Origin: Stylophora pistillata
Lineage: Eukaryota
Length of the DNA stretch: 64,000 bases
Direction of reading: 5' to 3'
NCBI RefSeq assembly: GCF_002571385.2
Contig: NW_019217818.1
Location: forward strand, 401,594-465,593
Below the pieces are notes generated by a model. That model saw only the letters and a list, made by a program, of their open reading frames with translations. It was not told where the DNA came from and made no database searches. The translations under genes and the position numbers were made by a program. This document shows, piece by piece, positions 43,708 through 46,660 of the stretch. Position 1 is the first letter of the stretch, and each line of letters begins with the position of its first letter.

Positions 43708-46660
43708 TCAGACCCTGTGATTAGGACATGGACTGGCTGCTGGTGAGCTTGGTGCTGTTCCTGTATCTGTGTGCAGTTGGTTTGCAATCTGTTGCAGTTC
43801 TTCAATTCCCTGGAAAGACCTTTCATACTTGTGTTGGACAAGAGATCGGTAAAAATGCAAGGCAAACCATACAAACACAATGCATACAGGAACTAATACC
43901 ACAGAAGCAGCCACTGCCGCAGGCTTACTGTAATTGTAAAACTTCACCCAACAGAGTATTGCAATCTCTGCTAAAAAAAGAAGCGTCCCAAGGCCAGTTG
44001 AGAAAATCCATGCTATTTCAATGTGCATGTGAAGTTTTTCGTGAGGAGAATCTTGTACAATTTGGGTTCCTTGTTGGTGAATATTTGCCACACCATCAAT
44101 ATTTGGCAGAATACAGACAGATATCATAAGTGCAAAGACATGAACTGAGATCAGAATGGTAGTCATCACACTGAATGCTATCAAAAGCCCTTCCGGCACA
44201 CCTGGTTCTAACTGAATTTCCACCATGGCTACCTAAGAATGAAACAAGGAAAAGGTCCTTCAAAGAACAGAAAATGCACTGAAGTGTCCCATCCAATTAT
44301 AGGAAGGATGGTATAGCGACAATAGTCCATGGAGAGAGGGTGAGATAATCAACTAAGTTTTGCATGTACATACAGATACCTTTAGTCCAAACTCTTTTCT
44401 CTTTGACTGGAAGTTGCCAATTTCAAACACCCGTAGAAATGAAACTGCTCAAATACACCCTCTCCTGAGTAACTATCGATGAAAAGTCTAGTCACGAAGT
44501 ATGGTAATTACATTTTCTTGTCACCTTCACTCCAAGGGCACCAGATGGCCATTAAAAATTATAGAATATCGAAATGACTCTACATCTCTATTAAGGTCTG
44601 ACCTATGAAAATTGTATCTTCATAGGATAGAGTATCACTCCAAATAGCCCATGATAAGTTGTCTTCTATTCTGGCTCTATATAACCTAGAGACTTTCTAT
44701 TAATGAACCAGACTGAGTGCTAAAACACACCCAGAAGGTTGAGCAAACACCAGAAAAGTTTAAAAATCAAGCAACTCAAAGGAGGCAGTGTGGCCGAGTG
44801 GTTAGAGTGTCAGACTCGTAATCCGCCGCTCCCAGGTTCGTGTCCCACCCTGACCACTGGATTTGTTTCTCGGTGGCCCAGAGTTCAGATCCTTGGCCAC
44901 CCTTGTAAATAGCCAACTGGTTTGCCTCCGGCCAGTTGGGGTTCTTAATGATGTTCTTAATGATGTTATGTTCAATTTAGACCATTTGTTTCATTTGTTT
45001 GCAAGGACCACAATGGAAACTACTGGTTCACCAGTAATTGTGTAATCCTATAAAAAGACTTTTTTTTTTTTTAACTGCCGCTCATGATTTACAAACTTTT
45101 CAAGTGTTCTCTCAACATCCCAAGTGGGTAATTCTGCCAGTAAACAAATAGAAAATTACAGTCAGTTGCTTTTATAAAATAAACTTAGAATTCTACAATG
45201 TTTGATAGATCAGATACAATGAATATATGAAGTTCATATATTTGAACTGCGGTATTAGATACGTATGATGCACGATCCTCGCAGTAGATAGCGCTATTTA
45301 TGCAATAGCGAAAATCAGACCAAAAAAAAAAAAAAAAATCAGGCCTGTACGGGACTCGAACCACTGACCTCTGCGATACTAGTGCAGGGCTCTACCAATT
45401 GAGCTAACAAGCCAACTGGGAGCAGGCCGTTAAGTTGATTCATAATAAACCCGTGAAAGTGATAAATCAGATACAATGAATATATGAAGTTCATATATTT
45501 TGAACTGCGGTATTAGATACGTATGATGCACGATCCTCGCAGTAGATAGCGCTATTTATGCAATAGCGAAAATCAGACCAATGTTTGATGGGTTTACCAG
45601 TACATTAAATGATAGGTTTTTGACCAATCAGGGCCCTCATAGTATCTCAGTTATTTTATAAACTGAATATTTAATTTCCACATTACATAAAAGTCAACCA
45701 AAGATTCCACAAACCTACATTGTACTACAATTCAACAGTGTTCGACTGGTACTTATCAAAGTGTAAACAAAAAATTCTGCAAATGCAAGAAAGATAAACT
45801 TCTGATAACAATGGAGACTCATGATAAACAATCAAATTAACACAATAGTTATTTTACCACAATTGGCAGTAATGCTACAATCTGATTGGCCAATTTTCTG
45901 TTGCCGATAAGAGTACAGACAACGCTGCTGGTATCAGTGTGTCACGTAACATGTCATGCACTGAAAGAAATGTTTTATTTGATGTCAATATCATGCTAAA
46001 AAACAAATCGACAGTGGTTTAGCTTGGTCTGTACTTGGCCATTCAGATTGCAATATTACAGCCGATTGAGGTGAACATTCTTATCAACTGCAATATTCAT
46101 CATCACAGACGTCAAAATTTGTAGCAGACTCACTGAGGTGCGCCTCGTGAGTCCACAACATTCTGACCCCTGTGATAACGAATATAATTTGTTTTCGGTA
46201 AGGGTACAGACCATGCTAAACCACTATCGATTTGTGATTTTAATTGACGAAACATACTTTGTAAACAAAAACATTCCAAAAATAAGCAGCGTAAGGAAAG
46301 ATCCGCACACTATAATATTTCTCTGCTAAATATCACAAACATCAAATAAAGTCATGGGCAAGATTTCCGTATAACCCCATACTTCATTATACAATTCTTG
46401 GATAAAAGAAAGCAGAGGCAAAACAACAGATTACCTCCGGGACTTCGGCTTTGTTTTTGATTGGTATGGGGTTATACGGAAATATTTCCAAGTCATATTC
46501 TGTTTCCTAAAGTCAATATAATTTGAAGCATTAAAACACTAACCATTGCAAAACCAGACATCAAAGCCGATGTGCGACTTGATGCTTTCAGCTTTCCACG
46601 GGTGAGAAAGAGTCTTTTCACCGTCAGTTTTTGTACACACTCTTCCTCTGCGTGCTTCAT
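43708..46660 (-). CDS. ORAI: Calcium release-activated calcium channel Orai, 2 coding exons, ~213 aa
   Basis: Exons 46544-46660 and 43708-44232; [21 protein letters not shown] (selectivity-filter Glu retained), [44 protein letters not shown]. Confidence 0.97.
44781..45010 (+). mobile_element. tRNA-derived SINE
   Basis: A box TGGCCGAGTGG, B box GGTTCGTGTCC, then a non-tRNA body; in the ORAI intron. Confidence 0.75.
45207..45578 (-). mobile_element. Terminally redundant tRNA-containing retro-element (257-bp unit, ~1.4 copies)
   Basis: Direct repeats 45209-45321 and 45466-45579 differ by one T indel; tRNA-like core between them; 11-bp TSD CAATGTTTGAT (45196-45206 and 45579-45589). Confidence 0.85.
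45341..45413 (-). pseudogene. tRNA-Thr(AGT)-like pseudogene within the repeat
   Basis: GGCTTGT-TA-GCTC..GAGC-C-CTGCA CTAGTAT CGCAG-AGGTC-AGTGG TTCGAGT CCCGT-ACAGGCC-T followed by oligo-T; T-stem has two mismatches. Confidence 0.7.
45849..46245. mobile_element. Crypton/Eulor-like element (degenerate)
   Basis: TTATTTTA..CTGATTGG at one end; hairpin centred on GACTCACTGAGGTGCGCCTCGTGAGTC at ~46128-46154. Confidence 0.5.
46356..46489. mobile_element. MITE, same family as 11725-11941 (ORAI intron 1)
   Basis: TIRs GGCAAGATTTCCGTATAACCCCATAC / GTATGGGGTTATACGGAAATATTTCC; flanking direct repeat AAGTCAT. Confidence 0.75.

Follow-up and report, generated by a model that had tools for sequence, protein, structure and literature searches.

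A tRNA-containing tandem element of corals with Penelope-type insertion ends in the genome of Stylophora pistillata

The insertion at positions 45196 to 45589 of the window, a 64,000-bp stretch of the Stylophora pistillata genome, belongs to a repeat family whose ends resemble those of Penelope-like elements (PLEs). Taken as a whole, we read it as a non-coding coral tandem element with PLE-type ends and a predicted Pol III promoter, likely copied by a borrowed PLE enzyme from a probably circular one-unit RNA, a reading to which we assign a probability of roughly one-half. Mobilization by a PLE enzyme is well supported and very probable, because local PLEs show equal insertion anatomy. A circular monomer is the best fit for the template, at about even odds.

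The insertion comprises 372 bp between two copies of an 11-bp target duplication, CAATGTTTGAT, exactly as originally predicted, and is real, not an artefact (Table 1). Its direct repeats (45209 to 45321, 113 nt, and 45466 to 45579, 114 nt) differ solely by one base within a T run, which bears out the single indel proposed for 113-bp repeats. Their spacing of 257/258 agrees with the 257-bp unit of the original prediction, whereas the copy number of ~1.4 is corrected to 1.45 to 1.48 units, running from a truncated 5' end through one unit junction to the 3' end. The predicted internal tRNA-Thr-like sequence stands, as ARAGORN calls a tRNA-Thr(AGT) and the Rfam tRNA model scores 44.4 bits (cut-off, 29); the reading direction is corrected to the minus strand. 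The oligo-T run claimed beside it is also present, with a 17-nt length that is the window copy's own expansion, replacing the T7CA of the commonest unit. All three stems named for the repeat were recovered, and the absence of the TG..CA termini of LTR-type ends was likewise seen. The minus-strand fold of the insert has a z score of -4.07, equalled by 0 of 100 shuffles. The AT-rich box of the spacer may be TATA-like.

Table 1. Features of the insertion and its target site, in window coordinates
Feature	Position	Strand	Remark
Target-site duplication, left	45196-45206		11 bp; last 4 letters also match the next element bases
Target-site duplication, right	45579-45589		
Whole insertion, ~1.5 head-to-tail units, one arm	45207-45578	-	Unit 85 (5' truncation) to ~199 (3' end)
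3' end, family site B (unit 196-200)	45207-45212	-	Putative reverse-transcription start of the window copy
Family site A (unit 146-147), in H3 loop	45259-45260	-	Second occurrence near 45518; no end in the window copy
Palindrome H4, between sites A and B	45222-45242	-	Second copy 45479-45500; inner junctions frequent there
Stem H3 (ACTGCG/CGCAGT), loop ~28 nt	45246-45285	-	Second copy 45504-45543
Hairpin H2, 7 bp, GCWTA loop	45292-45310	-	Second copy 45550-45568
Hairpin H1: tRNA 3' strand, T run, and back-pairing arm	45317-45346	-	Damaged in the window copy
T run inside H1	45322-45338	-	T17 in the window copy, T7 in the commonest unit
tRNA-like module; A box ~45395-45406, B box ~45352-45362	45341-45413	-	Putative Pol III promoter
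Spacer between one unit's end and the following tRNA	45414-45465	-	AT-rich box ~30-39 nt upstream of the tRNA

The element lies ~1 kb upstream of an Orai-1 family reading frame (43708 to 44232, minus strand; E value, 1.8e-49). About 200 bp from the element, at 44781 to 44990 (plus strand), lies a distinct SINE-like sequence headed by a tRNA, with look-alikes of the A and B boxes and a tail that is short and duplicated. Elsewhere in the window, RING finger and NHL-repeat frames at 48655 to 50921 (minus strand), the NHL part spread over two overlapping frames, form a TRIM-NHL-like gene. The stretch from 3105 to 7913 is a large element whose long inverted arms are nested (521, 299, and 214 nt at 90 to 95%) and which contains 34-bp tandem repeats internally; at 14850 to 16554 lies a MITE- or foldback-like element whose inverted arms measure 257 nt and whose subterminal tandem repeats measure 35 bp.

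Three k-mers from different parts of the unit have 2,898, 3,047, and 3,352 exact matches in the 398-Mb host genome, and their reversed controls have 0; the third of them is a 30-mer that spans the spacer-to-tRNA junction. A DNA search for the unit yielded 1,086 candidates, and the best 40 of these 1,086, which were scored, are mostly tandem arrays. The commonest unit is 251 bp long, its T7 being followed by a CAGG able to pair back onto the tRNA 3' strand. Counted from the tRNA start, it consists of the tRNA (1 to 73), H1 (68 to 89, with T7 in the loop), H2 (96 to 114), H3 (121 to 160), H4 (164 to 186), and a spacer to 251. All 31 full periods extracted measure 232 to 253 bp and keep a constant circular order. 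Older subfamilies account for 103 matches in the genome and at least 121 stretches in coral metagenome contigs. The family is a young, high-copy, non-coding ~250-bp head-to-tail tandem element of corals. The unit is present in 20 of the 21 sequencing runs listed, all available as assembled contigs and with the RNA runs among them made from poly(A) libraries; some of the RNA runs that contain it are labeled coral metagenome. The contigs of 4 runs record presence and not ends, strand, or level, and since no molecule ends are seen in them, they weigh neither toward nor against expression or a circular RNA.

A second young subfamily, of four identical 247-bp units with diverged sequence, was found at L411 (4 to 1103). 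The most diverged relatives, L137 and L139, differ in the anticodon loop and H4, and ARAGORN calls Gly in L139; these differences suggest that the tRNA module may have been exchanged or has drifted. Two adjacent two-arm copies with an equal inner junction (63/221) lie inside one duplication at L026 (1274 to 2770) and stem either from duplication of the insertion or from a repeat in the assembly.

Insertion ends were mapped by BLAST for 89 insertions or pieces in 79 loci. Of these loci, 39 came from the best matches after removal of 11 overlapping duplicates, and the other 40 were chosen, following contig order, among the first 100 pattern matches. Ends adjoining an N or a locus edge were excluded from the end counts. 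In the tRNA sense, 95 of 102 3' ends fall into two windows spanning 34 of the 251 unit positions, these windows having been chosen after seeing the data and allowing for BLAST extension into the duplication. Site A (unit 138 to 153) holds 47 of these ends, 31 of them at 146 to 147, and site B (unit 193 to 210), ~50 nt away, holds 48, with 35 at 195 to 200; the remaining 7 lie outside both windows. Among complete two-arm insertions, in which an inverted arm precedes a forward arm, 20 of 22 have A+B ends. The B+B copy L288, with discordant arms, is split by an N and stands outside these 22. Target duplications were called in 25 cases (8 to 16 bp), 18 of which measure 12 to 14 bp.

The 5' ends (n = 99) are scattered, with 6 near the tRNA start versus 8.7 expected and 21 at unit 161 to 180, an excess that arises partly because the H4 palindrome reads in both directions. 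Inner junctions carry short microhomology, short templated patches, or palindromes. The end pattern recurs in another 20 loci, which had been selected by hand because their matches cluster. Among relatives found in metagenome contigs, 26 and 74 of 124 ends lie at the offsets of sites A and B from H3, in a set whose search pattern favors B. The letters at sites A and B differ among subfamilies despite the constant offsets. Terminal redundancy as a design, part of the original prediction, is not supported, because repeat length varies from copy to copy; the terminal repeat of the window copy is a by-product of a fixed start and a chance stop 1.5 units on.

Two fixed 3' ends, inverted 5'-truncated arms, and 12- to 14-bp duplications agree with the earlier proposal of copying by a Penelope-type reverse transcriptase (RT). 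According to passages of PMC8557442, PLEs are marked by 5' truncation, partial tandems, an inverted 5'-truncated copy, and a tail on one side; the passages also describe non-autonomous Chlamys elements inserted head to tail. In vitro, both strands are cut and extended by a purified PLE protein, which starts at a pair of neighboring internal RNA sites on either side of the tail (PMC11167929). The host genome is rich in GIY-YIG elements, and an RT plus GIY-YIG ORF was found.

Two local PLE families served as controls, and they yield A+A and B+B copies as well as A+B. In the first, the two 3' end sites lie ~93 nt apart; three A+B copies have duplications of 11, 12, and 11 bp, and one copy is B+B. 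The second, also found in the window, has end sites ~57 nt apart (the second limited by the query extent) and includes three A+B and two A+A copies, with 13- to 14-bp duplications in the clearest cases. Pieces of an abundant hammerhead-bearing PLE family lie in the window at 1894 to 2918, 8086 to 8157, 8807 to 8962, and 21590 to 21686. Duplications of 13 and 10 bp flank two of these four pieces, a partial check on the 12 to 14 bp originally given for the Penelope insertions of the window. No unit sequence was shared with PLEs in 120 loci around GIY-YIG or PLE RT matches or in 40 hammerhead loci; the GIY-YIG partner scan scored the best 150 of 1,590 candidates and compared 70 of those. BLAST, tblastn, and profile comparisons of the unit with GIY-YIG loci, relatives of one PLE RT, and hammerhead loci returned only separate insertions of the element itself.

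Covariation was assessed in 24 of the 31 extracted units. Across the cloverleaf and H2 to H4, 43 cells changed on both sides versus 11.5 in shuffles, a count inflated by related rows. The firm case is H2, in which 5 of 7 pairs change on both sides, and acceptor pairs 6 and 7 and H1 pair 2 show such changes too. Lack of covariation, named beforehand as evidence against the original prediction, was thus not what we found. H3 has no both-side changes in the 24 units, and its letters are fixed by the search pattern, so that its conservation is partly built in; the both-side changes of H4 come from single rows and were not counted.

The acceptor stem and H1 are mutually exclusive, and H1 prevails in 10 of 12 units in circular folds. 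The fold model likewise fails to form the acceptor stem for 10 of 12 terminated transcripts, which makes its acceptor-stem probabilities unreliable. The model predicts that read-through or circular RNA would hide the acceptor stem, which argues mildly against simple RNase P/Z cutting. Circular folding as such was set aside as evidence, since z scores of -3.6 to -5.4 in 6 of 8 units, -1.8 and +0.2 in the other two, and -2.25 in the control retrozyme give no discrimination.

The A and B boxes are conserved across subfamilies, which hints at Pol III transcription of the unit. The anticodon arm carries an A31-C39 mismatch in 24 of 24 units and a C at position 33, and 2 of 5 T-stem pairs are broken in the window copy's subfamily. 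A functional tRNA gene, with an intact cloverleaf, U33, and closed anticodon and T stems, was therefore rejected. The mismatch and the broken T stem make a promoter role likelier for the tRNA-like module than that of a decoding or strictly processed tRNA.

The arms of the insertions cross the unit junction, and 110 of 115 tRNA 5' ends run on into the spacer, consistent with the tandem or closed template of the original prediction and at odds with the outcome set against it, tRNA-headed monomers with a local duplication. Arms exceed one unit in 54 of 100 cases (60 loci), and assembled arms reach 5.8 to 9.8 units. In 35 arm pairs, some of them joined across an N, 20 of 28 derived-site comparisons were shared (permutation mean, 0.11; maximum, 0.39; 5,000 permutations), and private variants are shared between arms, for example, in L256 and L347. 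This common haplotype points to both primers on one RNA or one parent. At sites covered by at least two units, rare variants were carried by all units in 22 cases, by a subset in 2, and by a single unit in 82; L276 and L339 have 8 and 11 variants, respectively, carried by every unit. Of the 22 fixed variants, 18 lie in two-unit spans, and in-place unequal exchange could be an alternative source of them. Long arrays often adjoin assembly gaps, and several differ in haplotype only at an end unit, as expected from short-read collapse, so that array length and uniformity are partly unreliable. Uniform consensus arrays were dropped as evidence on account of this collapse.

A T run in every unit should terminate Pol III. 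A circular template, the best fit, would reconcile a Pol III promoter and one T run per unit with arms of several units, 5' ends that do not pile up, and fixed haplotypes. In the route we propose, Pol III would start near the tRNA and sometimes pass the T run, with H1 predicted to displace the acceptor stem, and the one-unit RNA would be closed without any known ribozyme. As suggested by the DNA ends, a PLE reverse transcriptase-endonuclease would then cut the two target strands ~12 nt apart, and cDNA would begin inside one RNA at sites A and B, one per strand. In the DNA, arms are seen to extend past the unit junction, over lengths of 0.1 to several units, and to break off at scattered places. 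Pairs of arms are likewise seen to meet at short microhomologies, short templated patches, or palindromes, giving inverted tail-out insertions, while one-arm copies such as that in the window appear terminally repeated.

The most serious alternative, which we consider unlikely, is a linear read-through multimer transcribed from existing arrays by host Pol II or leaky Pol III and copied by the same PLE enzyme, with arrays that grow and homogenize by unequal exchange. It would account for the scattered 5' ends, for arms longer than one unit, and for variants in adjacent unit subsets, as in L047, L253, and L332. A multi-copy mRNA is proposed for the PLE of PMC11167929, and the preprint 10.64898/2026.07.22.740005 discusses local amplification of retrozyme arrays. 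However, arrays could only become shorter under linear copying by itself. Older arrays show many single-unit mutations over a shared haplotype, and the ratio of 82 single to 2 subset variants suggests that arrays formed at insertion. The retention of the promoter boxes across subfamilies is also left unexplained by a linear multimer. Less probable still is a Pol III template of ~1.3 units that is never covalently closed, carries one tRNA at each end, and is copied with repeated homology-guided jumps of the synthesis from the 5' end back to the 3' copy. Such an RNA agrees with the promoter and the T run as well as with the scar-free junctions and the fixed haplotypes, but whenever a jump failed, a 5' end at the start of the transcript would be expected, and only 6 of 99 are found there.

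Rfam detected no ribozyme in 44400 to 46400 up to an E value of 10 and none in the units of 7 relative loci, while hammerheads were detected in a control retrozyme and in one flank, in keeping with the original statement that no hammerhead is recognizable. Hammerhead, HDV-like, twister, and hairpin ribozymes were rejected on the basis of Rfam and of their motifs inspected by eye, and we regard a new ribozyme as very doubtful. We see little likelihood that the element is a retrozyme proper with an undescribed or decayed self-cleaving motif in H2-H3-H4, in which H3 may descend from hammerhead stem I. In its favor, H2 covaries, and the H3-H4 region of one subfamily resembles the hammerhead region of the local retrozyme, with 17 of 8,265 background windows as good. 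This likeness was picked after the fact, however; it is absent for the window copy's own subfamily, for which 2,600 of 8,265 windows are as good, and a profile search misses it. Moreover, no unit has an Rfam ribozyme although the controls were detected, the CUGANGA/GAAA core is absent, and the sequence of the H3 loop is free to vary. The weak, post hoc likeness was not accepted as support for descent from a hammerhead retrozyme and is only a lead.

The host genome does contain a true type I hammerhead retrozyme family with a 246-bp unit (L292 to L311). It has one 3' end site, at unit 43 to 48 in 14 of 20 loci, ~20 nt past the ribozyme core. Its 3' ends mostly run into TA repeats, and no A+B two-arm copies were seen in these 20 loci.

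Local duplication of an ordinary SINE with a tRNA head would account for a tRNA-derived part followed by a T run, but this reading, like that of a tandem repeat of the Helitron or TRIM type, can be dismissed on the end and junction counts, given one and the same junction 3,352 times, tRNA 5' ends that are almost all internal, no poly(A) tail or TG..CA ends, duplications of mostly 12 to 14 bp, and inverted two-arm insertions.

To our knowledge, how PLEs make tandem and inverted insertions is still an open question. Thousands of young, short, protein-free copies record the PLE process here, with one start per target strand and apparently one RNA, and the unit offers a ready 250-nt template for in vitro PLE tests. 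Should the RNA prove circular, a ribozyme is dispensable for retrozyme-like elements, and Penelope enzymes are supplied by tRNA-type promoters in the way that LINEs are supplied by SINEs. More tentatively, and with the odds somewhat against it, the family may stand for an old, widespread coral class of ribozyme-free circular RNA elements. In such a class, read-through Pol III RNA of a tRNA-type unit would refold over its terminator, be closed by host enzymes to a 250-nt circle, and be primed twice on a single molecule by a dimeric PLE enzyme at two structure-set sites, the cDNAs being joined via palindromes of the unit. Since ARAGORN calls the units tRNA-Thr genes (9 calls in one array), they would also inflate coral tRNA counts. 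No description of the element was found in the literature searched, including passages of PMC12070523. So abundant a repeat is likely present in Dfam or Repbase under a SINE or unknown label.

tRNA-derived SINEs carry tRNA-derived A and B boxes and retrotranspose non-autonomously. The coral unit shares the conserved boxes, but its tRNA lies inside a closed unit, a 3' tail is missing, and the ends are of the PLE type rather than the LINE type; a tRNA head at the 5' end is lacking, and membership was rejected. TRIM or other non-autonomous LTR elements, with fixed-length TG..CA repeats and a 4- to 6-bp duplication, do not match either, and a Helitron-derived tandem repeat, for which no target duplication is expected, conflicts with the 25 duplications of 8 to 16 bp.

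Non-LTR retrozymes work in a similar way. As described in parts of PMC7229834 and of the preprint 10.64898/2026.07.22.740005, they resemble the coral element in their non-coding, dispersed tandem units of similar size (220 to 240 bp in a coral), in their longer target duplications, and in a proposed PLE mobilization via a small circle. The coral family likewise consists of dispersed non-coding tandem units within the 170- to 400-nt range and has target duplications of >4 bp. In contrast to retrozymes proper, it lacks the defining type I hammerhead in each unit and has a tRNA-like module.

PLEs bearing a GIY-YIG endonuclease (PMC11167929 and passages of PMC8557442) share with the coral element 5' truncation, partial tandems, an inverted 5'-truncated copy, AT-rich targets, and a pair of 3' end sites that enclose the tail; the duplications in the local PLE families measure 11 to 14 bp. 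The coral element displays the two-site 3' ends in its own copies and in 100 of 124 ends of its relatives, alongside the A+B two-arm copies, 5' truncation, partial tandems, and inverted arms, and local PLEs bear like insertion marks. It differs from PLEs in having no ORF, no hammerhead, and no sequence common to the PLE loci compared, and its tail is 50 nt long versus ~57 and ~93 nt in the two local families. Chlamys elements such as MRC1 are likewise non-autonomous PLE passengers, multicopy and head to tail; they are algal and generally share 3' sequence with their partner, and the passages of PMC8557442 describing them mention no tRNA module. The coral element fits a non-autonomous PLE, like the Chlamys passengers, with the tRNA module as a new trait.
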